Assembly: GCA_050015375.1 (NCBI GenBank)
Contig: JBEKBN010000002.1
Coordinates: 8,339-72,338 of the forward strand
Length of the DNA stretch: 64,000 nt
Direction of reading: 5' to 3'
Source of the DNA: Minisyncoccia bacterium
GTDB lineage: Bacteria > Patescibacteriota > Minisyncoccia > 2-02-FULL-40-12 > IGHO2-01-FULL-4-A
The notes under the pieces are model-generated. The model saw only the letters and a program-made list of their open reading frames with translations, did no database searches and was not told the DNA's origin. The first letter of the stretch is position 1, and each line of letters starts with the position of its first letter. Shown here in pieces: positions 4,637-34,535 of the stretch. Position numbers and translations under genes: made by a program.

Positions 4637-5807
4637 ATCCATTTCTCGCTATCGCATTCGCGATCCCCAAGCCGGCGAAAAGCGGCCAGAGAGCCGAACT
4701 GCCATAACTGAAAAATGGCAGCGGCACTCCGGTCAACGGAATAAGACCGCTGATCGAACCGATATTTATGAATGCCTGAAGCGAAAGCCAGACGGCTACG
4801 CCGAGAATGAATAATCTTGAGAATTGATCACCGGCTTTTTTGGCTATGTGAACCAAGGTCAAAACCATGCCGACAAAAAGGGCAATGACAGCCGACCCGC
4901 CGACCAGACCCAGTTCTTCGACGATGACCGCGAAGATCGAATCCCCCGCCGGTTCGGGAAGATTGCTGATTTTTTGCTGGCTTTGGCCGTAACCGACGCC
5001 GAAGAGCCCGCCATTTCTAATGCTAACCAGTGCCTGATTAGTATGATAAGCGACGCCCTGGACATCCGCTGAGGGATTGAAATAGGCTTTTATCCTATCC
5101 CAGCGATAGGGCGCGAAGTATGCCAGCCCGGCAAATAGGATCGCAAAAACAAGCAGAAATCCCAGCATGTGGGAAATTTTCGCGCCTGAAAAAAAATACA
5201 TTGAAGCGCCCAGCAGAACAATGATGGTCAGAGTTTTCAGATCAGGTTGCAACGCTAAAAGAAAACCGACAAAACCCAAAACCAGCAAAAACGGCAGAAC
5301 CGCGGACGACCAATGATCGGTGGTGCGACTACCCCGTTGGGAGAACCAAGCGGCTAAATAGATTATCAAGGAAAGTTTGAGAAGTTCCGATGGCTCGAAA
5401 GTCAATGGTCCCAAATGAAGCCATCTTTGGGCGCCGTTTAAAGTTACGCCAAATTGTGGCATAAAGATCAAAAGCAAAAGCCCGATGTTGACGAATAGAA
5501 TCGGCAAAGCTAATTTTTTCCAAATTTTGGGTTTTATCCAAGAAAGCGCGAAAAAAATAACGAGTCCGGGCAGGACGCCAAACAGGAGCTGATGTTTGAA
5601 AAAATACGAAGCCGAGCCGAAAACCCGTTGGCCTTCGACCACGCCGGCCGACGACAGCATGACAAGACCGAATATGACCAGCAAAAAAAGAAGTATCACC
5701 AGCGTTTTCCCGGACCCCGAGGATTTCATTTCTCTATTATACAACAATTTCCGCGAGCCGGTCTCTTTTTTCACCAGATTCTCGGCTTCGCTCATCGGCT
5801 CATTCAA
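4635..5807 (-). CDS. ftsW: SEDS-family peptidoglycan glycosyltransferase (FtsW/RodA). The dcw context points to FtsW.
   Basis: The protein is polytopic with ~10 TM segments. The C-terminal motif GLIPLTGVPLPFFSYGSSAL is the SEDS signature. It lies adjacent to mraY. The start is uncertain: TTG at 5807 or ATG at 5795. Confidence 0.85.
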   Translation of the reverse strand: MNEPMSEAENLVKKETGSRKLLYNREMKSSGSGKTLVILLFLLVIFGLVMLSSAGVVEGQRVFGSASYFFKHQLLFGVLPGLVIFFALSWIKPKIWKKLALPILFVNIGLLLLIFMPQFGVTLNGAQRWLHLGPLTFEPSELLKLSLIIYLAAWFSQRGSRTTDHWSSAVLPFLLVLGFVGFLLALQPDLKTLTIIVLLGASMYFFSGAKISHMLGFLLVFAILFAGLAYFAPYRWDRIKAYFNPSADVQGVAYHTNQALVSIRNGGLFGVGYGQSQQKISNLPEPAGDSIFAVIVEELGLVGGSAVIALFVGMVLTLVHIAKKAGDQFSRLFILGVAVWLSLQAFINIGSISGLIPLTGVPLPFFSYGSSALWPLFAGLGIANAIARNG

Positions 5808-7370: not shown

Positions 7371-8417
7371 TTACTGCCAAGAATAGGCCTGCCGACCCCA
7401 CTCAACAAGTTCTTTTATTTCTCCGAAGCGGTCGTTGGAACCCAGAACCACGGCGATCATCCTGTTGTCGTCTCCGCCCGAAATGGATCCCTGCCCGCCG
7501 GCAGGTGTGGTATCTCCGGCGGAAACTTTGACTTCCAAAACCATGGTTTGGAGAGCGCCGTTCGTGAAACCCGTCTTGCCGCCAATGATCCCGGGAACGT
7601 CTCCCAAAAGCTGGTCGGTGCTGACCAGATGATGAGTATATTTGCCGTCAATTGAACTGACATCGGCGGTTCTGGTGGCTAAAATCTCCCAGATGACCGG
7701 ATACTTGTCAACATACCCGACTAATTTTATCAGATCGGAGACGGTTGAAAAAGAGTCGCCGTCATCCAGGCCGGCCGGGTCGGAAAATTTCGTGTCGGCC
7801 ATGCCAAGCACCCCCGCCTTCTCGTTCATTTTGGCAACTATGTCAATCCCTTTTTGGGAAGCATTGGAAGCGAAAACCAAAGCGGCGTCGTTGGAAGATT
7901 TTATCAGCATGACCTTCAAAAGATCGCCGCCTTTTAGTTTTTCGCCATTCGCGAAATCAGCGCCGTTGCCATCGGCGTTCAGATCTTCGGGCACAACGGT
8001 GTAAGTATCGCTAAGCGACAAATTTTCCATGACCACGACGGCGGTCATCAGTTTGGTTATCGAAGCGATGGGTAATTTGTCATTGACATCTTTTGAGTAA
8101 AGCAATTTCTCGGATTTGATATCATACAAAGCGGCGGACTTGGCGCCGATATCGGGATCGGGGATATTGAAATCACGGATCGGTAAATAGTTAGCTTGGT
8201 TGTTGGGTAAAATATACGTCTCGATCTGCTGGCCGAAATTTATTTGGCTGACGTCCATTTCTTTGGACGGAGCGATTACGGCAATGGCTTCATTTTTCGT
8301 CTTGTCAACTTGTGCGGTCGAGGGCAGCATCCGGAAGGAAGCAAACCAAACCAGCAAAGCCAATAAACCCAAAACGATGCCGGTTGAAATTGTGCTGATG
8401 ACCAGTTTTATCCGCAT
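7371..8417 (-). CDS. D-alanyl-D-alanine carboxypeptidase (low-MW PBP, peptidase S11, PBP5-like)
   Basis: There is an N-terminal membrane anchor. The SxxK motif is present (SITKLMT), as are SxN (SSND) and KTG (KTGFT). Confidence 0.8.
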   Translation of the reverse strand: MRIKLVISTISTGIVLGLLALLVWFASFRMLPSTAQVDKTKNEAIAVIAPSKEMDVSQINFGQQIETYILPNNQANYLPIRDFNIPDPDIGAKSAALYDIKSEKLLYSKDVNDKLPIASITKLMTAVVVMENLSLSDTYTVVPEDLNADGNGADFANGEKLKGGDLLKVMLIKSSNDAALVFASNASQKGIDIVAKMNEKAGVLGMADTKFSDPAGLDDGDSFSTVSDLIKLVGYVDKYPVIWEILATRTADVSSIDGKYTHHLVSTDQLLGDVPGIIGGKTGFTNGALQTMVLEVKVSAGDTTPAGGQGSISGGDDNRMIAVVLGSNDRFGEIKELVEWGRQAYSWQ

Positions 8418-8419
8418 AT

Positions 8420-9844
8420 TTATTTTTTCCCGCTTTCCGCTATCTTCAGATGCAATTCTCTAAGTTGTTTTTCGTCCACCTCCGAGGGCGAACCCATCAT
8501 TGGATCTCTGACCGAACCGGCCAAAGGAAAGGCAATGACCTCGCTGATCTTTTCTTCGTTTGCCAAGATCCTGACAAGCCGGTCAATACCGGGAGCGATC
8601 CCGCCATGGGGCGGCACGCCATATTCAAATGCCTCCAGCATATGTGAAAATTGTTTTTTCTGTTTCGGAGAAAAGCCGATGAGATCGAAAATTTTATCCT
8701 GGATCTTGGGATCGTGGATCCTGATGCTGCCGCCGCCGATCTCCACTCCGTTTAGAACTAAATCGTGCTGAAGGGACCGGGCCTTGCCGGGTTCGGTGTC
8801 AAGCAAGTGAATGTCTTCGGGTTTAGGCGCGGTGAACATGTGATGCGAAGGCGCCCATTTGTCGCCGGCTCCGTGAAAAAAATCTTCTTCGGTTTGCTCC
8901 GTGAAAAGCGGAAAATCCACGATCCAGCAAAAAGCCAATTCATTCGGGTCGTTCTTGTCTTTCCGCAGATCGGGCTTGTCACTGCCGAATTTTTCCTTGG
9001 CTTCCCTATAAGTCATTTTGGGCCAAGGAGCTTGGGTGATCTTTTTCTTTGGTGTCAGGGTCTGAACCAATTTGCTGTATAGTTTTTCAATTAATTCCAA
9101 AATTTCTTCTTGGCTGACAAAAGACATTTCCAGGTCCAATTGATAGAACTCGCCGGGACTCCGGTCGGCTCGGGCATCTTCGTCGCGAAAACAGGGAGCG
9201 ATCTGATAATATTTTTCCATGCCGGCGACCATCAATAATTGTTTGTACTGCTGGGGCGACTGGGGCAGAGCGAAAAACTGACCCGGATATTTTCTTGATG
9301 GGACAAGATAATCGCGGGCGCCTTCAGGTGTGGATTTGGTCAAGATCGGCGTTTGAATTTCGATGAATCCATCATCGGTAAGATAATTTCTTATGAACTG
9401 AATGACTTTGTGGCGCAATTGAAGATTTTTCCGCATTCGCGGATTACGCAGATCAAGGTAGCGATATTTCAATCGCGTCTCTTCGTTTATCTCTCTGGTG
9501 TCGGATGCGATGTCAAACGGTAACGTCTTTGACTCGCTGATGATCTTGATGTCCGTGGCTTCCAGTTCGACAGTGCCGGTAGCTAGTTCTTTGTTGACCA
9601 AATTCTTCGGCCGTTCATTGATCTTGCCAATAATTTTGACGACGAATTCGCTCCGCAATTTTTCGGCGATTTCGTGGGCGGTTTGCGAAATTTTCGGATT
9701 GACGACGACTTGAACCAAACCGGTCTTGTCGCGGACATCGAGAAAAATCAATTTGCCGTGGTCCCGCCGGGTATTGACCCAACCAAAAATCTCAACTTCC
9801 TCTCCGATATGACCCACCGTCTCAGCGGTATATGTGCGTTTCAT
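8420..9844 (-). CDS. aspS: Aspartate--tRNA ligase, short archaeal/eukaryal-type form without the GAD insertion and probably non-discriminating.
   Basis: The N-terminal OB-fold anticodon-binding domain is present. Class II motifs are present: FRDEDARADRSPGEFYQLDLEMSF, GGSIRIHDP and GIDRLV. At 474 aa it is too short to contain a GAD domain. Confidence 0.9.
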   Translation of the reverse strand: MKRTYTAETVGHIGEEVEIFGWVNTRRDHGKLIFLDVRDKTGLVQVVVNPKISQTAHEIAEKLRSEFVVKIIGKINERPKNLVNKELATGTVELEATDIKIISESKTLPFDIASDTREINEETRLKYRYLDLRNPRMRKNLQLRHKVIQFIRNYLTDDGFIEIQTPILTKSTPEGARDYLVPSRKYPGQFFALPQSPQQYKQLLMVAGMEKYYQIAPCFRDEDARADRSPGEFYQLDLEMSFVSQEEILELIEKLYSKLVQTLTPKKKITQAPWPKMTYREAKEKFGSDKPDLRKDKNDPNELAFCWIVDFPLFTEQTEEDFFHGAGDKWAPSHHMFTAPKPEDIHLLDTEPGKARSLQHDLVLNGVEIGGGSIRIHDPKIQDKIFDLIGFSPKQKKQFSHMLEAFEYGVPPHGGIAPGIDRLVRILANEEKISEVIAFPLAGSVRDPMMGSPSEVDEKQLRELHLKIAESGKK

Positions 9845-10171
9845 GAGTAAATTGTAGAATAAAAACGGAAATTATGCAAAAGAAAAAGCCGCTCATCCGT
9901 CAACCGACGGATTCGAGCGGCAGAAAAATTGGAAATGGGTCTAGGACGCCCCTGCGCCATGGAAAGTTTTTTGCGATTACCTCCATGGTTAGACTCGCAC
10001 TGTCTGGTTATCGGATTTTCGCAGCGTCCCAATCGACGGAAAGCCCATATTTTATCACTGTTTCATCCTGGTCATACAGGAATCCCCGAGCGTTGCGGTC
10101 TGGGCTAACAGCGATATTCTGCTACCATTTCCAAAAGGTATTATAGTCAACGGTTTTAGAATGTCAACAAA

Positions 10172-10215
10172 AAACCCCGCCAGATGAAAGCTTGGAAGGG
10201 CTTTTCATCTGTGCA
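10172..10215 (-). terminator. Rho-independent terminator of the 10241-10705 gene
   Basis: Read on the minus strand, a hairpin (cagatgaaaag...cttttcatctg) is followed by ggcggggtttttt. Confidence 0.55.
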
Positions 10216-10240
10216 GGGTCGAGTTGTTTCCGTTCGAGGG

Positions 10241-10705
10241 TTAGCGTTTTACTCGCTCAACAGCCGGCCCGAGGACATCTTTCATATCCTTCAGTCCGAG
10301 CCGCATTGTCGTTATTCCTTTGCTGACCTCCTCGGTTGTTTCCTCGTCGATGTGTTCCTCGACATCCTTGATTGCTGCCATCTTACCAGCTTGGTGCGCT
10401 CTTTGAATGTCTCCGGCGTTCGGATCAGATGATCGGCGTAGTGCTTCGATGGCGTTCTCGGCGGCATTGGTGCCGTTGTCACGGTTGTATCCCCATGTGT
10501 CCACTTCGTCCTTGGAAAGATCAATTTTCATGACCCTTCCTTGCAGATAGTCGAAATAGGCACGGTGGCCGTTGCCGAGAAGTTGCTGTGCCTGCTTCTC
10601 GGTCATTGGCTTCGGGTCGTAGTGCAGGAATCCCATCCCTTGAGGTCTTGATGCGTTGTAAAGAGCTGCCAATACTGCTGCTTTGCTTAATCCGGCGATA
10701 TTCAT
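10241..10705 (-). CDS. Hypothetical protein (ORFan, island-borne)
   Basis: The 154-aa ORF begins MNIAGLSKAAVLAALYNASRPQGMGFLHYDP...GNGHRAYFDYLQGRVMKIDLS. GC is clearly above the window average. I could recognise no family. It has its own terminator. Confidence 0.55.
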   Translation of the reverse strand: MNIAGLSKAAVLAALYNASRPQGMGFLHYDPKPMTEKQAQQLLGNGHRAYFDYLQGRVMKIDLSKDEVDTWGYNRDNGTNAAENAIEALRRSSDPNAGDIQRAHQAGKMAAIKDVEEHIDEETTEEVSKGITTMRLGLKDMKDVLGPAVERVKR

Positions 10706-10827
10706 GATTTTCTCTCCTTTTTTGTATGTCAGACAACGATTTCTGAATATTTACTAATAATACACCTTTTTAAGATATAAGACAATAGCTTCTCAAAATC
10801 AGCCAATATTACCTTTTTTTAATATAT

Positions 10828-10855
10828 TTGACAGTCTCCGCGTAAAGAATATAAT
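10828..10855 (+). promoter_or_regulatory. Sigma70-type promoter for small ORF copy 1
   Basis: TTGACA (10828-10833), a 16-nt spacer, then TATAAT (10850-10855). The ORF start is ~55 nt downstream with an AGGGA SD. Confidence 0.6.
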
Positions 10856-10911
10856 CAAATCGTGTGTTGTTTGGAATTCCATTGTATTTTCACCCCTGTT
10901 GATAGGGAACA

Positions 10912-11133
10912 ATGGATTTTTCGTCTGAATTAAAAGCTCGGCTGATTAAATATCTAGCCGATAAATACGAAATCCATGTGACCTCGGAAAAAGCCGAGGA
11001 GTTTTTGTCGTCTCTTGCCGACCTCTTTTTGGCTTTTTCGGATTCGGAATGTTCGGGTTCGGATGACTCTTTTTTCAACGCCCTGCAGGAACCGGTCGCG
11101 CCTCTCGCCTCGCCGTCGCTCGGCTCGGGCTAA
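10912..11133 (+). CDS. Small acidic protein, copy 1 of a duplicated module (73 aa)
   Basis: The sequence is MDFSSELKARLIKYLADKYEIHVTSEKAEEFLSSLADLFLAFSDSE...SFFNALQEPVAPL. It is paralogous to 12633-13034. The differences between the copies are mostly synonymous in this frame, which supports coding on the + strand. Confidence 0.55.
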   Translation: MDFSSELKARLIKYLADKYEIHVTSEKAEEFLSSLADLFLAFSDSECSGSDDSFFNALQEPVAPLASPSLGSG

Positions 11134-11264
11134 TAATGCGCAATTTGATGTCGTCACGAGTATTTTCCCTGACGGAAAAATCTCGCGACCCCGGCTCACG
11201 GTTTTTGCCTTTCCCTTTCGACAAGCTCAGGGTCAAACAAAAACATCGCTGCGCCTCGGCCAAG

Positions 11265-11297
11265 CAAAAAAATCTGCCGAAGGGCAGATTTTCTTTA
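11265..11297. terminator. Bidirectional intrinsic terminator
   Basis: aaaaaaa, then atctgccgaagggcagat, then tttcttt. Confidence 0.6.
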
Positions 11298-11360
11298 CGC
11301 TTGTCCGCAATGTGGGACGAAGTTGGAATGACGATGGCAATGGGATTATAACAAAAACAA

Positions 11361-11388
11361 AGCCCCGATTTTCTGGGGCTTTTGGTTT
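11361..11388 (+). terminator. Intrinsic terminator-like hairpin
   Basis: agccccgattttctggggct followed by tttggttt. It is preceded by aaaaacaaa, so it could work in both directions. Confidence 0.5.
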
Positions 11389-11408
11389 GCGAATATCTCT
11401 CCTCGTCT

Positions 11409-11651
11409 CTACCGTCTTTTCCCTTTTTCGAAATCGCCTGATTGGCGATGTCCGCAACGGAAAATATCATTTTTAGCGGCCTTGCTCAAATTCTTTGTCT
11501 TACGATTGAGACGTTTGGATGACTCGCATTTTTCACGGGTACAATACATCAATGTTTTGCGTCCTCGAGAAATAATTTTTACCAAATCACCAAACTGAAT
11601 CTTTTGGCCGCACTTTGCACAGACTCCGTCGCTGTCCGCTCTTTGATGCAT
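11409..11651 (-). CDS. Small zinc-ribbon protein (putative)
   Basis: MHQRADSDGVCAKCGQKIQFGDLVKIISRGRKTLMYCTREKC... has two Cys pairs. It shares the motif VC[AV]KCGQ with the adjacent 11694-11924 ORF. Confidence 0.4.
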   Translation of the reverse strand: MHQRADSDGVCAKCGQKIQFGDLVKIISRGRKTLMYCTREKCESSKRLNRKTKNLSKAAKNDIFRCGHRQSGDFEKGKRR

Positions 11652-11693
11652 AACTATCCTCCAAACTAATGGTTTTACCATTGTTGGCCGTAA

Positions 11694-11924
11694 TTATTTC
11701 TTTGTAGCAGGATGAGTGTTCTTGTGCTGTTGTCTTGTCTTATGCCCCATTGGCCTATGGCCGACATTGCCACTCGCTCTGTTTCCAACTACGCGAGGAA
11801 TTTGTTCGTGCGCTTGCTGGCACTTAGGATAGCGCCTTGCGTTCTTAAAACGGTAGGGCGTCTTTTTGAAATACTTGTACTCTTGACCGCATTTCACACA
11901 AACCTTTATGGTTGGAATCAACAT
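11694..11924 (-). CDS. Small zinc-ribbon protein (putative), tandem paralog
   Basis: MLIPTIKVCVKCGQEYKYFKKTPYRFKNARRYPKCQQAH... carries C-x2-C plus C/H ligands and is basic. Confidence 0.4.
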   Translation of the reverse strand: MLIPTIKVCVKCGQEYKYFKKTPYRFKNARRYPKCQQAHEQIPRVVGNRASGNVGHRPMGHKTRQQHKNTHPATKK

Positions 11925-11971
11925 AACCGACTCCTGTTCTTTCTGATTAGGTAATGGTTGCCTCTAAAACC

Positions 11972-12385
11972 TTAGAGGAGAGGCGGAAAGTTCTGGTCGT
12001 CACAACCAAAGTCAGTTTCCAAGCCATCTGCAATTTTTCCATCCGGAAATCTGACTGAAATCTGACCATTGACTTCTTGCCAGATATCCAAACGTTCAAC
12101 TCGAACGCAACCAATGGCTGTATAATTACCCTTGGCGTAACGTTTTCTCCCAAATGTAATCTTAATATGCACGTCCCTTTGGTTATCCTTGATTGGCGAT
12201 GAACTAACGTCAATTCCTCGAATTTCCAATTCGCCAACGACCTTCGTGGTTTTTTTGTAATCCTTCTCGTCCGTGTCGCTATCAGGAGAAATGCCGTTCT
12301 CGTGCTGGTATATAAGTTCAGCTGCCATAAACTTAGCGATTCGTACCGCTAAGATTTCCGACTCACTTATAGATTTTCGAGTCAT
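11972..12385 (-). CDS. Hypothetical protein
   Basis: The 137-aa ORF has good coding periodicity and no recognisable family. Confidence 0.5.
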   Translation of the reverse strand: MTRKSISESEILAVRIAKFMAAELIYQHENGISPDSDTDEKDYKKTTKVVGELEIRGIDVSSSPIKDNQRDVHIKITFGRKRYAKGNYTAIGCVRVERLDIWQEVNGQISVRFPDGKIADGLETDFGCDDQNFPPLL

Positions 12386-12558
12386 TAGTAACTCCCGTCA
12401 CAGGAACACTTGAGAAACATTCTCAAGCGACTACCGTCTCAGTAGTGATTTAGCAAGAAAATCCAGCCAAATCGCTACTGAGAAGATGATGTTAATGTGC
12501 TATGTTAAGAATAGTATTAATATTATACCTTATTCTCTGTTTTGTCAAGTTTGCATAT

Positions 12559-12586
12559 TTGACAGTTTTTAGGTTAAGAATATACT
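12559..12586 (+). promoter_or_regulatory. Sigma70-type promoter for small ORF copy 2
   Basis: TTGACA (12559-12564), a 16-nt spacer, then TATACT (12581-12586). It is positionally homologous to the copy-1 promoter. Confidence 0.55.
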
Positions 12587-12632
12587 CAAATTGAGTAAAC
12601 ACTGTGAGCACGAGCGGAAAAAGCCCTAGGTA

Positions 12633-13034
12633 ATGCAATTAGGGTTTTCAAAAGTGCTCAAAACTCGGCTAATTAAATACTTAGCCGAAAAATATTCAGT
12701 CATTGTATCTTCGGAAAAAGCCGAAGAATTTTTGCGTTCTCTTGCCGACCTCTTTTTGGCTTTTTCTGATTCGGAAGATTTAGGTTCGGATAACTCTTTT
12801 TTCAACGCCCTGCAGGAACCGGTCGCGCCTCTCGTCGGCTTCCGCCGATTCGGGCTGACCACCGCCTCATTGCCTCGCTTGCCATTTGCTCGCTCGGCAA
12901 CATTCCGGCGTTTGATTCCTTATGCGAGCCAAGCAGTTGGCTCGCTCAGGGCGCAAAAGATAAAACCGGATATAATCCGGTTTTATCTTTTGATGTCCGC
13001 CCTGAAGGAATCGAACCTTCAACCTCTTCCTTAA
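12633..13034 (+). CDS. Small acidic protein, copy 2 of the duplicated module. Its divergent Arg/Leu-rich C-terminal extension reads into the tRNA-Lys gene, so the 3' end is uncertain.
   Basis: MQLGFSKVLKTRLIKYLAEKYSVIVSSEKAEEFLRSLADLFLAFSDSE...SFFNALQEPVAPL. The conserved part is ~70 aa. The frame stays open to 13034. Confidence 0.45.
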   Translation: MQLGFSKVLKTRLIKYLAEKYSVIVSSEKAEEFLRSLADLFLAFSDSEDLGSDNSFFNALQEPVAPLVGFRRFGLTTASLPRLPFARSATFRRLIPYASQAVGSLRAQKIKPDIIRFYLLMSALKESNLQPLP

Positions 13035-13068
13035 AAGGGAATTGCTCTACCAATTGAGCTAAGGGCGG
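12996..13068 (-). tRNA. tRNA-Lys (anticodon UUU)
   Basis: By my own fold the gene is 73 nt. The acceptor stem is CCGCCCT/AGGGCGG, with U8. The D-arm is GCTC-AATTGGTA-GAGC, nearly identical to E. coli tRNA-Lys. The anticodon loop is CTTTTAA. The T-arm is GAAGG-TTCGATT-CCTTC. The discriminator is A. No CCA is encoded. Confidence 0.85.
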
Positions 13069-13089
13069 ATAAATTATTATATCAAATTA

Positions 13090-13644
13090 TCAATATTTCG
13101 GATTTTCTTCTTTGATCTTCAGTTTAAAATTCACAAATCTTGCCAAAGCAAATAAATAGCTGGACAGGCGGTTCAGATAAGTGATGGCGTTCGGGCTGAT
13201 CTTGCTTTTATATTTTACAACAATTCTCTCCGATTTCCGAGCGGCGGTCCGGGCTAGTTCCAGCCGCGAACTCAACTCACTGCCGCCGGGTATGACGAAC
13301 TTGGTGATCTCCGGGATTTGCCGGTCAATGTCCGCTATTTTTTTCTCCAGCTGGACGACCGATTCTTCGGTTAACCTTTTTTCAAAACGGAAATTAAATC
13401 TCGCGGCGGCAACCTCAGCTTGAATAATGAACAAAACGTGCTGGACGGCATGCAAATTTCCCGCAATTTTTTTTCCGCCGGCCGACGGATTTTTTCTGGC
13501 TTCGGTCTTGCAAAAACCGATAACCGCGTTCAATTCGTCCAAACAGCCCAAGGCCTCAAAAATCGCATCGCTTTTCGGCAAAACGATCTTGCCAAAAACG
13601 CTCTCGCCCTTGTCCCCCATCTTTGTATAAAACTTTGTTTTCAC
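13090..13644 (-). CDS. ATP:cob(I)alamin/corrinoid adenosyltransferase, PduO-type
   Basis: The N-terminus reads MKTKFYTKMGDKGESVFGKIVLPKSDAIFEALGCLDELNAVIG. This matches the PduO/MMAB family signature (YTKTGDKGxT...DxRxEAxGxxDELN). Confidence 0.8.
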   Translation of the reverse strand: MKTKFYTKMGDKGESVFGKIVLPKSDAIFEALGCLDELNAVIGFCKTEARKNPSAGGKKIAGNLHAVQHVLFIIQAEVAAARFNFRFEKRLTEESVVQLEKKIADIDRQIPEITKFVIPGGSELSSRLELARTAARKSERIVVKYKSKISPNAITYLNRLSSYLFALARFVNFKLKIKEENPKY

Positions 13645-13667
13645 AGAAAATATTCTAACACATTATC

Positions 13668-13709
13668 CCAAAAAAGAAAAAGCCCCGCCGGATGAAGTCG
13701 TGGCGGGGT
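13668..13709 (-). terminator. Intrinsic terminator for the 13726-14001 gene
   Basis: Read on the minus strand: aaccccgccacgacttcatccggcggggct followed by ttttctttttt. Confidence 0.6.
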
Positions 13710-13725
13710 TAGACAAACAATCTAC

Positions 13726-14001
13726 TTAGAAAATTAGATCGTCAGGCGTGGCCTGAGATACATCTTTAATCACCACCCAAGTGTTGGGTCCATAACCACG
13801 TGTTCTAGGTGGCAAAGAAAGGATATTTTTTGTGCTATATAACGGAATCACGCGCGGATTTACGCGAATTCCGCTTTGCCTAGCCGCAAAACTAGCTAAT
13901 ACGCGTGCGCACTCAACCACGTTTGCAAATTCGTGAACAGCCGTTAACTCTTCAACGAAACAATCATCCTCAAAAATAAGGTACCTAAATTTTAGAAACA
14001 T
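13726..14001 (-). CDS. Hypothetical small protein (91 aa from the internal Met)
   Basis: A strong SD (gaaaggagatggt) precedes ATG at 14001-13999 (MFLKFRYLIFEDDCFVEEL...). A TTGACT-N17-TATTAT promoter lies upstream on the minus strand. Confidence 0.55.
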   Translation of the reverse strand: MFLKFRYLIFEDDCFVEELTAVHEFANVVECARVLASFAARQSGIRVNPRVIPLYSTKNILSLPPRTRGYGPNTWVVIKDVSQATPDDLIF

Positions 14002-14557: not shown

Positions 14558-16228
14558 TTATTTCTTCAACGACTCATCCAATATCTTCCTCAGCCCCTCG
14601 ACATCGATCTCGGGTTTGGGTTTTGGAGCGGCTGGCGGCCGGGGAGACGCGGACTGATTCGGAACCGGATTTGAAGCGCCGCTTTGAGTCGGTCGTTCTT
14701 CAATTTTCTTGCCTTTGAAATCCACCGCTCCCCGCTTGAACGCCTCATCCAGCGACACCGACGGCGGAGTTGTCGGCTCAGCGGAAGTCCGTCTGACAAA
14801 TGGCCGGTTGTTGTAATTGTTGTCTTGTCTTCGCGGTTGATTCTGGCCCCGATAATCATCCCGCGGCCGATTATCATTTTGTGATCTATATTCGTTCTCC
14901 GATCTTTTTGGATATGACTGATTCGTCGCCATGGCCGATTCCATCGGTCCGTACCATTTCTCAATATTTTTTTCAACGTCATCTACCGGCATGGCGTTAT
15001 GAGTCCGGGAATATTCAATGATTTTTTCGCGGTTGCTTTCTGGCAATTTCGGTGGCGTGTCAATGGTCATTGCCGAGAAAGCCCGCGAAGCGATGCCGTC
15101 AATGAGAAGTTTTATGTAAATTTGCCTTTTACCGAGATTGACGATATCGGTGGCCAAGAATTCGGGCGACAATTCTTTTTCTAAAAGTTCGGCATCCTCG
15201 GCGCCAACCCGGAAACTGATGATCGTGCCGACATTGCCGAAGATCGCGTCCCTGACGGTCTCGTCGAGCTGGGCGACATATTGATGGGCGACAATTAAAC
15301 TCAAATGATATTTTCTGGCTTCGGATAAAATATTAGCGAATGACGAGGTGGCGAAATTCTGGAACTCGTCAACGATCAAAACAAAATCCGTTCTTTCTTT
15401 TTCCGGAATGTCCACCCGCGACATGGCCGCCAGCTGGAGTTTGGTGATGATCAGGGCGCCAAGCAAACGCGAAGCGTCTTCGCCGATCCGGCCCTTGGAA
15501 ATATTGACCAAGAGGATCTTGCCTTGGTCCATTATCTCGCGCATATCAATGGTGGATTTCGGCTGGCCGACGATATTCCTGATAAGAGCCGAGGAAGTGA
15601 ATTGACCGACTTTGTTCTGGATCGCCGCTGTGGCTTCGGTGGCGAATTTGTCGGCATATTTGGCGAATTCCTGGGTCCAAAAGGCCTTGACCGTCGGGTC
15701 TTTCAATTGGGCGACGACGTAATTGCGGTAATCTTTTTCGGCAAGCATCCGGTTGATACCGAGTAGCGTCGCGTCCGGTGTTTCTAAAAGCGCCAAGATC
15801 GTATTATTCAAAATATATTCCATTCTCGGCGACCAGACATCGATCCAGATCTTTTTGAAAACGTTCATCACGCCGTCGGCGACAAGGTGGCGTTTATCGG
15901 GGTCAACCTGTTCCATGACATTGAAAGCGACCGGAAATTTCAGATCTGCCGGGTTGATATAAATAACGTCTTTTATCCTTTCTTCGGGAATGTAGTCCAA
16001 AAGATCCTCAACCGGGTCGCCGTGGGGATCGATGAAGCCGACTCCCCTTCCGGCCTGGATATCCTGAATGGCGAATATTTTTTCAAGTTCCGACTTGCCG
16101 AGGCCGGTCTTGCCGATAATGTAGACGTGGCGCCGGCGGTCGTCCATTTTTATACCAAAAGGCACTTTATTATTTCTAAAGTTGGTCTCGCCGAACAAAA
16201 CTATATCGTTGTCGTTGGTTTGAGCCAT
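14558..16228 (-). CDS. FtsK/HerA-superfamily P-loop ATPase, TraD/VirD4-like (type IV secretion coupling-protein-like), with a disordered Q/N/R/P-rich tail
   Basis: Walker A is GKTGLGKS. Walker B is VLIVDEFQNF. The protein is ~440 aa plus a low-complexity C-terminus. It is paired with the membrane protein at 16232-17500, a pairing seen in CPR genomes. Confidence 0.65.
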   Translation of the reverse strand: MAQTNDNDIVLFGETNFRNNKVPFGIKMDDRRRHVYIIGKTGLGKSELEKIFAIQDIQAGRGVGFIDPHGDPVEDLLDYIPEERIKDVIYINPADLKFPVAFNVMEQVDPDKRHLVADGVMNVFKKIWIDVWSPRMEYILNNTILALLETPDATLLGINRMLAEKDYRNYVVAQLKDPTVKAFWTQEFAKYADKFATEATAAIQNKVGQFTSSALIRNIVGQPKSTIDMREIMDQGKILLVNISKGRIGEDASRLLGALIITKLQLAAMSRVDIPEKERTDFVLIVDEFQNFATSSFANILSEARKYHLSLIVAHQYVAQLDETVRDAIFGNVGTIISFRVGAEDAELLEKELSPEFLATDIVNLGKRQIYIKLLIDGIASRAFSAMTIDTPPKLPESNREKIIEYSRTHNAMPVDDVEKNIEKWYGPMESAMATNQSYPKRSENEYRSQNDNRPRDDYRGQNQPRRQDNNYNNRPFVRRTSAEPTTPPSVSLDEAFKRGAVDFKGKKIEERPTQSGASNPVPNQSASPRPPAAPKPKPEIDVEGLRKILDESLKK

Positions 16229-16231
16229 AAT

Positions 16232-17500
16232 TTACTGCGGAAGTCCCGCCGGGGGTTGGCCTTTTTTGGCTTCGACTCTCGGGAAAGCCGGAGCGCGCAA
16301 ACCGATGCCGGGCAAATGCCACAGGGTCGCTAATTCCTCGGTATTCAAAAGAACGACATCCTTGATGAAAGTCCGCTCGCGGTATTTTCGGTAAATTCTG
16401 ATCTTGCGTCTCAGTTCCTGCCATTTCCAGAAAAACCCTTTGTTGGACGGGAATACTTGATAAAGAATTCCCTTGGCCAAGGACTCGGTCTTCGGATTTG
16501 GTTTGAAAGAGTTCATGTTGTTGGCGTAAAGTTGTTTGAACATGCCGATAACCGAGGTGACCCGGGCGCGGTTGAACAATTCCTTTCGGGCGACATACAG
16601 GAAACGGACATCGGCTTTGAACCCAAGTTTGGATATTTTATTCTCGACTTGCTCCAAAATATCTCGCTGGCCGGGGGTTAATTTCTGGACATTGAATTCC
16701 TGCTTCTCATCTTTTTTTTCGGCTTGCGGAACCTGAAAAACATTTTCTTCGATAAAATCCATCGTCTTATGCAAGGCATTGGGTTCGACTTTGACTTTTT
16801 TGCCTGTGATTTTGTCGATAATTTTTTGGGCATCTTCGATGATCTTTTTGCCGCCGGTCGGCCGGATGAGAAATTGCAACCAGACATGCTCGCCGGGCTG
16901 GGTCGAGCTCAAGGTTTCGGCCAAAGGCGCCAAGGGATCGGTTCGTTTGAATTCGTCTTTTCCGCTTTCTTCCTCGAAATAGGGATAGGTTCTCAAAGGA
17001 TAAGCGTTGTCGTTGATAAAAACGAGGTCGGTGCCATAAAGATCGTAATCATCGTTGGGCAAGATCCTCGGCAAATATTTGGTGTAATCCTCGACTTCTT
17101 TTATTTCGGCATCGGGATACTGGGCGAAAACCACATGCTCAACGAGGGAACGGAAATTCTCGGTCACCCGGATCAAAAAACTAATTTCACCGCCGTTGCC
17201 GACGATCTCGAATGAATAAAAATTCGGAACCTCGCCTTTGAAAAATCTTTTCTTCCACTTGACCGGCAAATAGGAAGCGTGGAGGCCGGCAAAAATATTT
17301 TCAGCGATCTTGGGACTTTTTTGGACATCGGGCGGCGGTTTTATTTCCAGTAAAACCCACTTCAAACTCAAGAGATACTTCTGGGTCACATAAACCAAAT
17401 AACCGGTGATCGTACCGGTAACCAAAAGGATCGGGACATAAATCCACCAATATGCGCCCAGGATCGAGAAAGCGGTTTTAAGTGGACTTAGAAAATCCAA
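16232..17500 (-). CDS. Membrane-anchored partner protein of the TraD-like ATPase (conserved hypothetical)
   Basis: There is an N-terminal TM (AYWWIYVPILLVTGTITGYLVYV) followed by a soluble domain. There is a 3-nt gap to the upstream ATPase gene, so the two are probably co-transcribed. Confidence 0.55.
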   Translation of the reverse strand: MDFLSPLKTAFSILGAYWWIYVPILLVTGTITGYLVYVTQKYLLSLKWVLLEIKPPPDVQKSPKIAENIFAGLHASYLPVKWKKRFFKGEVPNFYSFEIVGNGGEISFLIRVTENFRSLVEHVVFAQYPDAEIKEVEDYTKYLPRILPNDDYDLYGTDLVFINDNAYPLRTYPYFEEESGKDEFKRTDPLAPLAETLSSTQPGEHVWLQFLIRPTGGKKIIEDAQKIIDKITGKKVKVEPNALHKTMDFIEENVFQVPQAEKKDEKQEFNVQKLTPGQRDILEQVENKISKLGFKADVRFLYVARKELFNRARVTSVIGMFKQLYANNMNSFKPNPKTESLAKGILYQVFPSNKGFFWKWQELRRKIRIYRKYRERTFIKDVVLLNTEELATLWHLPGIGLRAPAFPRVEAKKGQPPAGLPQ

Positions 17501-17607
17501 GGGAAGCGAATAGCCAATAGCGAATAACCATTAGCCATTAAATTAAGCAATTGACTTTCCTCTATTATATATTTTCTGTTTGCAATTGGCTAATCGCTAT
17601 TCGCTAA

Positions 17608-31724: not shown

Positions 31725-34535
31725 TTATTTCCTGTGATACGGGGCATTTATCAACCCGCATTTTTTCCATTTGCGGCCGGAACCGCAGGGACAGGGGTCA
31801 TTGCGGCCGGGTTCTTTTTGACCACTTGATATTACGGTTTGATTCTGGTTTTGATTTGCGCGATTCATAACTCCCGATTCTTGATTCGCAATATCCGGTT
31901 TTCTTTCGTCCATAGCAACTTTTCGAACCGGTTGCTGAACGGGACCGATTTTGTAAATAATATTTGCCACTTGATTTCCGATGGCCGATTGGAGTTCGTT
32001 GAATAATTTTTGGCCTTCGATCTTGTATTCGACAAGCGGGTCGCGCTGGCCGTAAGCCCGCAAACGCACCGAGTCGCGAAGATATTCCATTTGTTCAAGA
32101 TGGTCCACCCAAATCTCGTCAATCACCCGCAACATCAGCATCCGCTCAAGATTCCGCATGCCTTCCTCGCCAAGTTGTTTTTCCTTTTCGGCATAAGTCA
32201 AATCGGCGATCTGGGTCAAAAACTCGCGAATTTTTTCCCGGTCATCGGTTTTCGCGACTTCAATTATTTTCCCCATACCGCCATCATCAACCGGAATCAT
32301 CATTTTGAAATCTTCAGCGATTTCTTTGGCATGGTTCCTTTCATCAATTCCTTCGGAAGGCAAATCGAAATGGGAGTTAACGATCTTATCAATATTATCA
32401 TCAATATAGCCAACAATTTTTTCTTTAACATCTTTTGATCCAAGAATTTCATTTCTCAAACCGTAAATCGCCGTCCGATGCTTATTCATGACATCATCGT
32501 ACTCAAGAACGTATTTTCTGATGTCAAAATTATTGCCTTCGACTTTGGTCTGGGCTTGTTCAATGGCGCGGGAGATGAGCCGGTTTTCAATGGCATCGTC
32601 TTCGCCGACGCCAAGGCGTTCCATCAGATTTTTCAAGCGGTCACCGCCAAAAATCCTGATAAGTTCGTCCTCCGCCGAAACGAAAAATTGCGAACTGCCC
32701 GGATCGCCTTGACGGCCGGAACGGCCGCGAAGTTGGTTGTCTATCCGGCGAGCTTCGTGGCGTTCGGTGCCGATGACATGCAAACCGCCCGTCTCGATAA
32801 CTTTTTTCGCTTCGTCCGCCGAAGGCGGATTGCCGCCGAGAATTATATCCACACCCCGGCCGGCCATATTCGTCGCCACGGTCACAGCGCCAACATGACC
32901 CGCTTGGGCGATTATTTCGCCTTCCTGCTCATGGTTTTTGGCATTGAGCACTTTGTGTGGCACGCCTTCATTATTCAAATATGCCGACAAGATCTCATTT
33001 TTGGAAATTGACGTTGTTCCGACAAGTACCGGTTGGCCGCTGTCGTGGCGCTCTTTGACTTCGCGGGCGACGGCTTTCATTTTTCCTTCTTCGGTTTTGT
33101 AGATGCGATCGGCCTCGTCGGCGCGGATCATCGGTTTGTTGGTCGGCACTGAAATCACTTCCAGTTTGTAGACCTTGTGGAATTCCTCGGCCGATGTCTG
33201 GGCGGTACCGGTCATGCCGGCCAATTTGCCGTAAAGACGGAAATAGTTTTGGAAAGTGATCGTCGCCAGCGTTTTTGATTCCTTTTGGACCAAAACATTT
33301 TCTTTGGCTTCGACGGCCTGGTGCAAACCGCCCGACCAGCGTCGTCCGGGCATAAGCCGGCCGGTGAATTCATCAACAATGATAACTTCGCCATTTTTGA
33401 CGACATAATCCTTGTCACGATGGAACAAGATATTGGCTTTGAGCGCTTGCTCCAGCTGGTGGACATAACGCGTCCCGCCTTCTTCATAAATATTTTTAAC
33501 ATTGAGCATTCTTTCGACTTTCTCAATGCCTTTTTCGGTGATGGAAACGGCTTTCAATTTTTCATCAACGGTGTAATCTTCTTCCTTCGTTAGCCGGGGC
33601 GTGATCTTAGAAAATGTCTCGTAAAGCTGGGTTGATTCCATATCCGGAGCCGAAATTATCAAAGGCGTCCGGGCTTCATCGATCAAAATGGAGTCAATTT
33701 CGTCAACGATGGCAAAATTATGTCCTTTGGCTTGCGACTTTTCCAGTGAATTGTAGGCCATGTTATCGCGAAGATAATCAAAACCGTATTCGTTGTTGGT
33801 GCCATAAGTTATATCCGCCAAATACGCTTCACGCCGTGTCACCGGCCGCAAAAACTCATGAATGACGCGAAACCCACCAGTGATGTCTCTCGTTTTATCA
33901 AGTGCGTCTTCCTTCTCGCCAGTTTTTGAATTATGAATCACGAATTCTGAATTATGATCTTTTTCTTCTTGATTCATGATTCCTGATTCATGATTCCTTC
34001 CATGACTTGGGTCGTATAAATACGACGCCTCATGATTCAAAACACCTATGGTCAGTCCGAGCGCGTCATATATCTGCCCCATCCAAACCGCGTCTCTGCG
34101 GGAAAGATAATCGTTGACCGTGACCAGGTGGACGCCAAGGCCTGTGAGCGCGTTCAAATATGCCGGAAGGGTAGCGACAAGGGTTTTGCCTTCTCCGGTT
34201 TTCATTTCAGAAATATTTCCGGCGTGCAAAACCATTCCGCCGATAAGTTGGACGTCAAAGTGCCGCTGACCGAGAGTCCGTTTTGACGCTTCCCTCACTG
34301 CCGCAAAGGCCTCGGGTAAAATATCATCCAATGTTTCACCCCCACCACTCATGTTTGAGTGTGGGGGTGAACCGTCAGATAATCTTTTTTTAAATTCGTC
34401 AGTTTTATTTTTTAATTCCTCGCGTGAAAAAAGCTCGAACTTGGGTTCGAGTTCATTGATAGCCGCCACTTGGTCTTCCAGTTGCCTCACGGCGCGTAAA
34501 TTCGCGTCGCCGAATATTTTTGAAATAAAAGACAT
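31725..34535 (-). CDS. secA: Preprotein translocase ATPase SecA
   Basis: The DEAD-motor motifs are present. The C-terminal zinc finger is CPCGSGRKWKKC. There are two lineage-specific insertions: SPPHSNMSGGG at codons 56-66, and a low-complexity HESGIMNQEEKDHNSEFVIHNS block. Confidence 0.95.
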   Translation of the reverse strand: MSFISKIFGDANLRAVRQLEDQVAAINELEPKFELFSREELKNKTDEFKKRLSDGSPPHSNMSGGGETLDDILPEAFAAVREASKRTLGQRHFDVQLIGGMVLHAGNISEMKTGEGKTLVATLPAYLNALTGLGVHLVTVNDYLSRRDAVWMGQIYDALGLTIGVLNHEASYLYDPSHGRNHESGIMNQEEKDHNSEFVIHNSKTGEKEDALDKTRDITGGFRVIHEFLRPVTRREAYLADITYGTNNEYGFDYLRDNMAYNSLEKSQAKGHNFAIVDEIDSILIDEARTPLIISAPDMESTQLYETFSKITPRLTKEEDYTVDEKLKAVSITEKGIEKVERMLNVKNIYEEGGTRYVHQLEQALKANILFHRDKDYVVKNGEVIIVDEFTGRLMPGRRWSGGLHQAVEAKENVLVQKESKTLATITFQNYFRLYGKLAGMTGTAQTSAEEFHKVYKLEVISVPTNKPMIRADEADRIYKTEEGKMKAVAREVKERHDSGQPVLVGTTSISKNEILSAYLNNEGVPHKVLNAKNHEQEGEIIAQAGHVGAVTVATNMAGRGVDIILGGNPPSADEAKKVIETGGLHVIGTERHEARRIDNQLRGRSGRQGDPGSSQFFVSAEDELIRIFGGDRLKNLMERLGVGEDDAIENRLISRAIEQAQTKVEGNNFDIRKYVLEYDDVMNKHRTAIYGLRNEILGSKDVKEKIVGYIDDNIDKIVNSHFDLPSEGIDERNHAKEIAEDFKMMIPVDDGGMGKIIEVAKTDDREKIREFLTQIADLTYAEKEKQLGEEGMRNLERMLMLRVIDEIWVDHLEQMEYLRDSVRLRAYGQRDPLVEYKIEGQKLFNELQSAIGNQVANIIYKIGPVQQPVRKVAMDERKPDIANQESGVMNRANQNQNQTVISSGQKEPGRNDPCPCGSGRKWKKCGLINAPYHRK
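34337..34369. repeat. Palindromic mini-element copy (b), in-frame inside secA
   Basis: The arms are cacccccaccactca and tgagtgtgggggtg. The element encodes SPPHSNMSGGG, an insertion relative to canonical SecA between RLxxG and xLxxxLPEAFA. Confidence 0.7.

Follow-up and report, generated by a model that had tools for sequence, protein, structure and literature searches.

Several described systems resemble parts of the locus analyzed here. In the pSAM2-type AICEs of actinomycetes, a rolling-circle Rep, an integrase and a small accessory gene lie in one operon (repSA-xis-int), and the element integrates at the 3' end of a tRNA gene. The origin of small rolling-circle replicons, such as the small plasmids of Firmicutes and the Microviridae, typically adjoins rep or lies within it, and the Reps of rolling-circle plasmids and of phage f1 start replication at one copy of the origin and end it at another copy in direct orientation. 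Decayed element arrays at tRNA genes (defective prophages and islands) consist of successive elements at a single tRNA, with att-like scars, in which the integrase has been lost and regulatory genes have been kept. Very few mobile elements have been characterized in bacteria of the candidate phyla radiation (CPR), which are currently almost intractable genetically. Prophages of the inovirus/plectrovirus group with Rep proteins of the G2P/ORF2 type, some of which encode a serine recombinase and use a tRNA as att site, have been reported from CPR bacteria as well (Roux et al. 2019, PMC6813254).

The window (the whole stretch of 64,000 nucleotides that was analyzed) contains an island between an AspRS gene and a tRNA-Lys(UUU) gene, in which a module of a sigma-70 promoter and a small ORF occurs twice, at positions 10824-11133 and 12555-12850. 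Both the duplication and the two promoters had been pointed out in an earlier sequence-only reading, and they proved to be real. The promoter of copy 1 (TTGACA-N16-TATAAT, + strand; -35 at 10828-10833, -10 at 10850-10855) matches the consensus at 12 of 12 positions and lies in a control region (10783-10865) that is 79% identical to positions 9803-9883 of the related locus L001. That of copy 2 (12555-12596, + strand; TTGACA-N16-TATACT, -35 at 12559-12564, -10 at 12581-12586) matches at 11 of 12 positions. A minus-strand promoter starting at 12548 stands back-to-back with the latter. The promoter blocks of the two copies (10824-10865 and 12555-12596) are 79% identical to each other, and the direct repeat 10933-11107/12660-12834 is 86% identical. 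The small ORF of copy 1 (10912-11133, + strand) encodes 73 amino acids; residues 5-43 form a two-helix core, and the rest toward the C-terminus is an acidic, disordered tail. In copy 2 (12633-12850, + strand) the core is intact, and a 2-nt deletion past the identical 42-nt run shared by the copies shifts the frame, so that the ORF stays open to a first stop at 13034, within tRNA-Lys(UUU) (12995-13068, - strand), in agreement with the read-through described earlier. Beyond the 42-nt run, similarity between the copies is not significant past approximately 30 nt, and each tail ends in a predicted terminator hairpin (11264-11297, with -17.8 kcal/mol for the DNA fold window 11245-11324, and 12955-12991, with -30.7 kcal/mol for the fold window 12920-12999).

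Pairwise dN/dS between the copies was 0.34 in the sense frame, the lowest value among all six frames, which bears out the purifying selection proposed for the protein; the accompanying statement that the differences were mostly synonymous was incorrect, as 14.3 synonymous differences were counted vs. 18.7 non-synonymous ones, and 12 of 62 residues differ. The antisense ORFs of both copies were rejected as coding sequences: their dN/dS was higher, at 0.44, they are read in a frame whose third codon positions coincide with those of the sense frame, and it is the + strand that carries the promoter. An internal hairpin with a T-run over the SEKAE codons (10982-10999 in copy 1, 12708-12727 in copy 2) showed covariation across seven loci, with 11 of 500 shuffles reaching the observed score; it was discarded as a family-wide feature, being missing in L004, L012 and L013.

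The two ORFs are homologous to a family of at least 146 clusters that share the two-helix core, as detected by profile search, and for which there is no Pfam model. In the intact relatives, the small ORF is the first gene of an operon, followed by a rolling-circle Rep (PF23343) and then by a large serine recombinase, both exceeding Pfam thresholds. This order was seen in L001, L004, L005/L006, L007 and L013, and partially in L008; the exception among loci with enough downstream context is L002, a short contig in which the small gene can stand alone. The Rep of L013 also matches the Pfam model RepSA (PF20199; 35.2 bits, cut-off 34). The recombinase gene adjoins tRNA-Lys(CTT) in L001 and tRNA-Gln in L005 and L007, and the orientation toward the tRNA in these three loci is the one in which copy 2 faces tRNA-Lys(UUU), at a distance of 160 nt. 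The intact elements span only about 4 kb, and searches of IMG/VR with the hairpin arm described below and with the L001 Rep returned no matches. A small two-helix protein, a hairpin, an HUH-type Rep and a large serine integrase together make up an undescribed element family of CPR bacteria, and full-text literature searches turned up no description of such a replicon-plus-integrase family.

A strong hairpin lies between the small-ORF core and rep in all Rep-linked loci (fold z-scores from -2.9 to -9.3, with -8.9 for the hairpin region of L001). L001 and L004 have 100% identity in both arms, although the Reps of these loci are only 56% identical. The loops differ among the relatives' loci, which makes a conserved nick site in the loop a poor fit; the hairpin may serve as the origin of replication or in the control of rep. 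Both copies in the window retain the left arm, at 11056-11083 (+ strand; 28 of 28 positions identical to L001 and L004) and at 12783-12810 (+ strand; 27 of 28), but neither has a right arm, and no fold is predicted for either region (z-scores of +1.9 and +0.1, respectively). Past the left arm, both run into the same 24-nt replacement sequence.

This arrangement bears directly on the perfectly identical 42-mer, which had been put forward as a possible special site, RNA element or product of gene conversion. The 42-mer has exactly two occurrences (11066-11107 and 12793-12834, + strand), with 0 chance matches expected, and is composed of the last 18 nt of the hairpin arm and 24 nt of junction. 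The first 18 nt are kept in other family copies as part of the arm, which is invariant at the nucleotide level across the closest relatives (L001, L004 and L002), while the last 24 nt are present in this organism only, and in no other family member. A run of this length has P = 0.003 if the 33 differences over 187 nt are assumed to be evenly spread, but P is only about 0.05 against the adjoining 55 nt, which are already 89% identical. Identity between the copies rises from 70% (10921-11010) to 89% (11011-11065) and to 100% in the 42-mer. Up to position 10983, the pairing of copy 1 with L001 and of copy 2 with L002 is backed by 21 informative sites and the pairing of the two copies by 5; past this position the corresponding counts are 0-2 and 4-7 (Fisher p = 0.003-0.005 for the switch, with two outgroup sequences only). 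Judging from these site patterns, the 5' halves of the copies appear to come from different sub-lineages and the 3' halves to be common to both. Since the 5' halves group apart and the 3' halves together, the identical stretch would represent a tract of recombination or gene conversion joined to a conserved arm of the hairpin, and recombination between the copies together with this one arm seems the best explanation of the 42-nt identity. The perfect 42-mer is explicable without any special function. Among the options offered earlier, gene conversion or recombination is thus favored by the site-pattern switch, whereas a special site comprising the whole 42-mer fails by the refuting condition stated with that proposal, given that only its first 18 nt are conserved outside this organism.

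The island extends from 9845 to 12994. Its left end (9845-9890) lies directly upstream of the start codon of AspRS (ORF 8420-9844, - strand), and positions 9846-9890 align locally with L001 8196-8237 (34 of 44 positions identical, score 37), a segment that in the L001 island adjoins the leftmost att-like motif on its inner side; no att-like motif was found at the left boundary in the window. On the right, the island is bounded by a TGTCCGC core (12994-13000) and the tRNA-Lys(UUU) gene (together 12994-13068, - strand), the putative integration target. Within the island, an att-like motif, CTTGTCCGCAATGTGGGACGAAGTTGGAA (11300-11328, + strand), is identical at 29 of 29 positions to L001 8734-8762 and includes TGTCCGC (11302-11308), the sequence at the tRNA-Lys 3' end. 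A second, interrupted copy of the motif lies at the L001 island edge; in the metagenome collection the motif was found only in the same-strain contig L003, and in genome contigs not at all. The 29-mer is a candidate att site, on account of the 7 nt that it has in common with the tRNA end and of where it lies in one other locus. The direct repeat of the tRNA-Lys 3' end is limited to these 7 nt within the motif at 11300, none being present at 9845-10240, and an Rfam search over 9000-14000 detected tRNA only.

Two sets of cargo genes are present. Unit A carries a 154-aa ORF (10241-10705, - strand) that belongs to no known family and is not homologous to the L001 cargo genes, and unit B an operon (11409-12385, - strand; terminator at 11359-11382) of two CxxC ORFs of 90 and 76 aa and a 137-aa ORF. 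None of the four ORFs gave a match above threshold in Pfam, PHROGs, PADLOC or NCBIfam. No cargo gene of one unit is related to any of the other, so this is no simple 1.7-kb tandem duplication.

The sequence-only reading had further proposed a mobile island of higher GC content, without integrase, at tRNA-Lys. No Rep or integrase was indeed detectable: the Reps and recombinases of five loci, searched by tblastn against the island and the 64-kb window, gave a best E value of 0.25. Mobility is supported by the Rep-serine-integrase operons that abut tRNA-Lys or tRNA-Gln elsewhere, but not by composition. The GC content of 9845-12994 is 0.449 vs. 0.441 elsewhere in the window, an equal or higher value is reached by 43% of stretches of this size, and only the short tails after both ORFs are GC-rich (0.57-0.61); the deviant base composition by which tRNA-linked genomic islands are classically recognized is not found here. 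The same arrangement was found in other samples, and a 98%-identical strain (L009) carries the island. In the nearest relative with context (L010, AspRS 82% identical), murI, TonB_C and small ORFs lie between tRNA-Lys and AspRS, so that it does not provide a clean empty site.

We consider, with a rough probability of 0.6, that 9845-12994 consists of two tandem remnants, decayed or non-autonomous, of the integrative rolling-circle element family of CPR bacteria. An intact member comprises, in this order, divergent cargo, a sigma-70 promoter, the gene of the small two-helix protein, the strong hairpin, rep (the HUH-type initiator) and the serine recombinase gene, the 3' end of which runs into the 3' end of the tRNA gene. 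Each copy in the window would correspond to the promoter and first gene of one element, both cut inside the hairpin, with the left arm kept and the right arm, rep and int lost. The 3' halves, including the same truncation junction, would have become common through recombination or gene conversion, and the 42-nt identity would combine 18 nt of invariant arm with 24 nt of recently shared junction. The island shares with the family the small-protein homologue with its promoter, the location and orientation at a tRNA 3' end and the distal att-like motif; the full hairpin, a rep downstream and a large serine recombinase at the tRNA are missing. As no remnant of Rep or recombinase was detectable in the tails, we infer the loss only from the kept hairpin arm and the gene order of the family. 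The two orphan copies are probably still expressed and might interfere with incoming relatives.

It is unlikely, in our judgement, that the 42-mers are functional in themselves, as a half-origin or terminator of a Rep or as a recombinase site, and that the 1727-nt unit between them is a non-autonomous mini-element, which the Rep or integrase of a helper element could cut out, copy and reintegrate. Such a unit would contain tail 1, the att-like motif, three cargo genes and, from copy 2, the promoter and 5' part. The repeats lie in direct orientation at a spacing of 1727 nt and match exactly, they include the arm of the hairpin, which no other DNA feature of the family equals in conservation, and the unit would hold a complete att-like site (11264-11328, with terminator, TGTCCGC and conserved arm); initiation and termination of rolling-circle Reps at two origin copies would suit this layout, and the 100% identity is slightly above that of the adjacent tract. 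However, both copies are without the right arm and do not fold there, no Rep or recombinase was detected in the 64-kb window, the final 24 nt recur in no other family member, and the unconserved loops leave no common nick motif visible. Moreover, the repeat is a branching point in the assembly graphs of other samples, which do not close to a circle. Logan contigs of 1745 and 1724 nt, considered as a free 1727-nt circle, were rejected as unitigs broken inside the repeat at k = 31. A more elaborate form, less likely still, takes the 42-mers as half-sites bounding a 1.7-kb satellite of the Rep/serine-integrase elements, non-autonomous but equipped with an att-like site, three small cargo genes and a small regulator gene, which a helper Rep would mobilize by initiating at one 42-mer and terminating at the other and whose orphan protein would act in trans on helper replication.

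Lower again in probability is the duplication of one module within the genome, followed by divergence, with the 42 nt being least diverged because they code for conserved C-terminal residues. The presence of two copies at one locus and the purifying selection on the protein would agree with this, but each 5' half is nearer to a different foreign sequence than to the other copy, and the intervening genes are not duplicated. In addition, the last 24 nt code for residues that are unconserved in the family, and synonymous differences fall approximately ten-fold between the halves, beyond what selection at the protein level can cause.

As for the protein itself, an AlphaFold model was confident only over a 40-residue helical hairpin, and the acidic tail, modelled at low confidence and predicted to be disordered, is present in only 5 of 75 family members. 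No match above threshold was found in Pfam, PHROGs, PADLOC or NCBIfam, none among PDB sequences, and none at E <= 0.001 when the model was compared by Foldseek with PDB and BFVD; scans of metagenome, genome and viral contig collections confirmed no relatives. These results speak against the earlier suggestion that the protein is a DNA mimic or an anti-restriction factor. We regard it as very improbable that the island carries it as cargo of this kind, duplicated through selection for dosage. The net charge of the copy 1 protein (-8) and the mobile-element context of the gene would be in line with such a role, yet the acidity lies in the disordered tail, the folded core having a net charge of -3 in copy 1 and +1 in copy 2 (family core mean of -2), and no rigid fold with a DNA-like acidic array is seen. 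Furthermore, the gene keeps its place at the head of the rep-int operon, a position that points to a role in replication or integration, and in L001 it is translationally coupled to rep, suggesting that the protein may be an accessory factor of one of these processes.

The template and variable repeats of diversity-generating retroelements, which are common in CPR bacteria, have a common conserved 3' end, and the two repeats of about 175 nt with an identical 3' end superficially resemble such a pair, but this reading is refuted by the mismatch spectrum, which is not adenine-specific (of the 33 mismatched positions, 7 have A in copy 1 and 14 have A in copy 2), besides each copy having its own promoter and start codon and the homologues being linked to rep.

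The window illustrates the decay and recombination of elements whose intact form, as a self-replicating, self-integrating and tRNA-targeting module of such small size, is a candidate basis on which genetic tools for CPR bacteria might be developed. Among annotated proteins, the closest relatives of the family's Rep are those of small rolling-circle plasmids of Firmicutes and VP4 of Microviridae (23-35% identity); unlike the family, neither group is integrative, and no homologue of the small protein was found in them. The inovirus/plectrovirus prophages have the same Rep family (PF23343) and are likewise integrated beside tRNA genes, also in CPR bacteria, but the intact elements studied here are only about 4 kb, gave no IMG/VR matches, and list no morphogenesis (Zot/pI) or coat genes among precomputed Pfam annotations. 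The intact relatives resemble the pSAM2-type AICEs in operon content and in integration at a tRNA 3' end. They differ in having a large serine recombinase instead of a tyrosine integrase, a small gene that is placed ahead of rep and is not similar to Xis, and CPR bacteria instead of actinomycetes as hosts, and no gene for conjugation was seen in them; the copies in the window, in turn, are without both rep and int. As in decayed arrays at tRNA genes, successive elements at one tRNA would have left att-like scars here, with the integrase lost and a regulatory gene kept. In contrast to such arrays, composition is not deviant, only TGTCCGC is shared in place of a long tRNA-end repeat, and what has been kept is a specific module of promoter and small gene, truncated in the hairpin.

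The 3.15-kb stretch of this Minisyncoccia metagenome-assembled genome (CPR, candidate phyla radiation) that is enclosed by the AspRS (8420-9844, minus strand) and tRNA-Lys(UUU) (12995-13068, minus) genes carries, in order after AspRS, a 154-aa ORF (minus), the first copy of the module (promoter 10828-10855, ORF 10912-11133), a GC-rich tail with a terminator at its end, three ORFs of 90, 76 and 137 aa (minus), the second copy (promoter 12559-12586, ORF from 12633), and a second GC-rich tail with terminator adjoining the tRNA gene. The duplicated module is genuine: the ORF block (175 nt) is 86% identical between copies and the promoter block (42 nt) 79%, both sigma-70 promoters are near-perfect sites, and the 42-mer (11066-11107 and 12793-12834) is exact in both copies and occurs only twice in the window. 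Other parts of the sequence-only reading did not hold. The proposed higher-GC island showed a GC content of 0.449 vs. 0.441 in the rest of the window, a value that 43% of windows of equal size reach or exceed, and the differences between copies, described as mostly synonymous, amounted to 14.3 synonymous and 18.7 non-synonymous (pairwise dN/dS 0.34). The sense frame of the small ORF had the lowest dN/dS of the six frames; an antisense ORF is open in every copy because its third codon positions coincide with those of the sense frame. Copy 2 had also been read as continuing in frame into tRNA-Lys; the frame is indeed open to 13034, the stop codon having been lost via a 2-nt deletion, but a terminator (12955-12991) precedes that first in-frame stop, so the run into the tRNA is a sign of decay rather than a fusion protein.

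Several other features were observed in the window. A candidate structured RNA of approximately 210-250 nt (9880-10167, minus) separates the 154-aa ORF from the AspRS start, with a 12/12 sigma-70 promoter (10167-10140), a terminator hairpin (9889-9922), paired 5' and 3' ends and a fold z of -3.4, and with no Rfam match. The region 21055-23663 includes an ORF-poor 1.3-kb stretch with several 49-96-nt repeat families (21588-22134 and 23568-23663; no Rfam match), flanking a 333-aa ORF (22326-23327, minus) with a sub-threshold IS110-family transposase domain match (Transposase_20, E 0.0012). A GC-rich, palindromic, terminator-like 32-mer (CCCCCACA...TGTGGGGGTGAA) was found twice (23349-23380 and 34340-34371, 84% identity). 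Genes for a VirD4/TrwB-like coupling protein, a DUF8128 protein and a sigma-70 region-4 protein (~14558-18657, minus, from the gene table of locus L019) adjoin the adenosyltransferase gene, just past it, and could be part of a CPR type IV secretion or conjugation machinery.

The two copies are homologous to the head of a rep-int operon. Among loci outside the window with enough downstream sequence, genes for a rolling-circle initiator (Rep) and then a large serine recombinase come after the small gene in L001, L004, L005/L006, L007 and L013, the short contig L002 being the exception; L008 carries a partial Rep downstream. The Reps scored above the Pfam threshold for PF23343, that of L013 additionally matching pSAM2 RepSA, and their closest annotated relatives were Microviridae VP4 and Firmicutes rolling-circle plasmids of 1.4-5.4 kb. 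In L001, whose recombinase has Resolvase, Recombinase and Zn-ribbon domains, the small-ORF stop and rep start codons overlap (ATGA), and the two genes are therefore translationally coupled. In L001 the recombinase ORF enters tRNA-Lys(CTT) at the 3' end, as it does tRNA-Gln in both L005 and L007, and copy 2 has the same position and orientation with respect to tRNA-Lys(UUU). The recombinase frame extends into the antisense of the target tRNA (L001 11079-12572, L005 8980-10578, L007 ~4809-5469), so the integrase gene gains its final codons through integration. A cargo gene divergent from the small-ORF promoter encodes a superinfection-immunity protein (Imm_superinfect; L005 7314-7640, L006 162-422). 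The island had been noted from the sequence to have no integrase; neither Rep nor recombinase traces were found anywhere in the window.

A strong hairpin lies between the two-helix core of the small gene and rep in every Rep-linked locus (L001, -30.2 kcal/mol, z -8.9; L004, z -9.3; L005, z -4.4; L007, z -3.7; L008 and L013, z -2.9 each). Its arms are identical in L001 and L004 even though the Reps of these loci are only 56% identical and the small-ORF cores strongly diverged; the loops differ. In L005, L007, L008 and L013 a hairpin at the equivalent place is built from different sequences. The left arm, GGTTCGGATGACTCTTTTTTCAACGCCC, which encodes GSDDSFFNA, is retained in the window (identity 28/28 in copy 1, 27/28 in copy 2), and the right arm is absent from both copies, whose regions do not fold (z +1.9 and +0.1). 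After the left arm both copies share an identical 24 nt, TGCAGGAACCGGTCGCGCCTCTCG, found in no other family member. From this comparison, the 42-mer is read as a composite, its first 18 nt belonging to the conserved arm and the remaining 24 nt to a truncation junction common to both copies. Homology of L002 breaks 7-8 nt earlier than that of the window copies, and this locus ends in its own terminator. Separately, a 6-bp hairpin with a T-run covers the SE(K/Q)AE codons of the small ORF in the window (10982-10999 and 12708-12727), L001, L002, L005, L007 and L008, and is absent from L004, L012 and L013; two of its pairs covary at synonymous positions (GC/AU/UA and CG/UA/UG), pairing holds in 93% of cells, and the observed score was reached in 11/500 shuffles.

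Identity between the copies rises from 70% (10921-11010) to 89% (11011-11065) and 100% over the 42-mer, falling to approximately 55-65% for some 30 nt and then to nothing. The first 30 codons hold about 13 synonymous differences and the following 32 a single one, a drop that protein-level selection cannot produce, and L001 and L002 have synonymous changes in 11011-11055, so a general nucleotide constraint is absent there. In a four-sequence comparison, 21 informative sites up to 10983 grouped copy 1 with L001 and copy 2 with L002, vs. 5 grouping the two copies; after 10983 the counts were 0-2 vs. 4-7 (Fisher p = 0.003-0.005). The 5' halves therefore differ in ancestry while the 3' halves share a recent one, a pattern that points to recombination or gene conversion, between tandem copies or between parent elements, and favours the gene conversion that had been listed among the candidate causes. 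The 42-base run was only marginally unusual against the adjoining converted tract (p ~0.05). The alternative of a nucleotide-level site lost ground for the 42-mer as a unit, as its last 24 nt are specific to the window copies; nothing out of the ordinary is needed to account for a perfect match between copies that are otherwise diverged.

A 29-nt motif (11300-11328) is 100% identical to L001 8734-8762, with non-alignable flanks, and contains TGTCCGC (11302-11308), the bases at the tRNA-Lys 3' end in both genomes. L001 has two copies of it, one at the far end of the intact element and one where the island adjoins the dsbA terminator; a 20-nt palindrome, TCTGCCTGCCGGTAGGCAGG, is inserted into this outer att-like copy (8150-8197). 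The motif would represent an att scar dividing remnant A (9845-11299) from remnant B (11300-12994), both of which end in small ORF, ~165 nt of GC-rich tail, terminator hairpin and TGTCCGC. The left edge of the island (9846-9890) aligns just inside the outer L001 motif (34/44). The strain contig L009, from another sample (AspRS 98%), is identical to the window over 10100-11394 and unitigs from other samples end inside the 42-mer at both ends, thus the arrangement is stable in the population. L009 is also identical over 7574-8900; the patch between (~85 differences over 8900-10000, concentrated in the AspRS 5' half and left island junction) reflects local recombination. The tRNA-Lys/AspRS site is variable among relatives, one with 82% AspRS identity having other genes there, and a clean empty site was not found among them.

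The main alternative, in which the direct 42-mers are working half-sites bounding a helper-dependent 1.7-kb mini-element, is improbable: one hairpin arm and Rep are missing, the last 24 nt are unique, and the assembly graph branches at the 42-mer and forms no circle. The cargo genes of remnant A, remnant B and L001 are mutually unrelated, which is typical of modular elements and excludes a plain 1.7-kb tandem duplication; the switch in site pattern also contradicts it.

A word-indexed search of 5.8 billion proteins returned only three relatives of the small protein; when 1.8 billion cluster representatives were searched with a profile, 146 small proteins (44-100 aa) emerged that share a core of ~45 residues, FSxxLKxRLIxYFxxKYxIxITSEQAEEYLxSLADLFLAF. 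An AlphaFold prediction made with 75 sequences showed two helices, spanning residues 5-19 and 25-43 (pLDDT above 90), followed by a tail of low confidence. No family match was found in Pfam, PDB sequences, PADLOC or NCBIfam, nor any Foldseek match (E <= 0.001) in PDB or BFVD; moreover, only 5/75 members have the acidic GSDDSFF tail and net charge averages -2 over the core, leaving the suggested DNA mimic without support. The protein may be a replication or integration accessory factor. A diversity-generating retroelement pair was contradicted by the spectrum of mismatches between the copies.

Under the truncation reading, the hairpin would serve the element as its origin or as a structure that controls rep. 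Both long inverted repeats and origins of rolling-circle replication are known hot spots for deletion, and a deletion that ended on one side within the hairpin may have removed rep and int; the truncated form would then have recombined or propagated, leaving the same junction in both copies. As consensus promoters and cores are intact, expression of the orphan copies probably continues, and they may interfere with incoming relatives.

The family found along the way is a more interesting result than the 42-nt puzzle, and a full-text literature search returned no description of a small-ORF/Rep/serine-recombinase family. The window locus lacks three features that define this family, namely the complete hairpin, rep and int, and is most appropriately classed as a decayed or non-autonomous derivative. 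Functionally, the intact relatives resemble pSAM2-type integrative elements in having one operon, inserted at the 3' end of a tRNA, that encodes both a rolling-circle Rep and an integrase. Their Rep belongs to a family also found in inovirus and plectrovirus prophages; such prophages have been reported from CPR (PMC6813254). Four traits set the intact relatives apart: a serine integrase, a small protein encoded at the head of the operon, the absence of genes for morphogenesis or transfer, and a size of ~4 kb.
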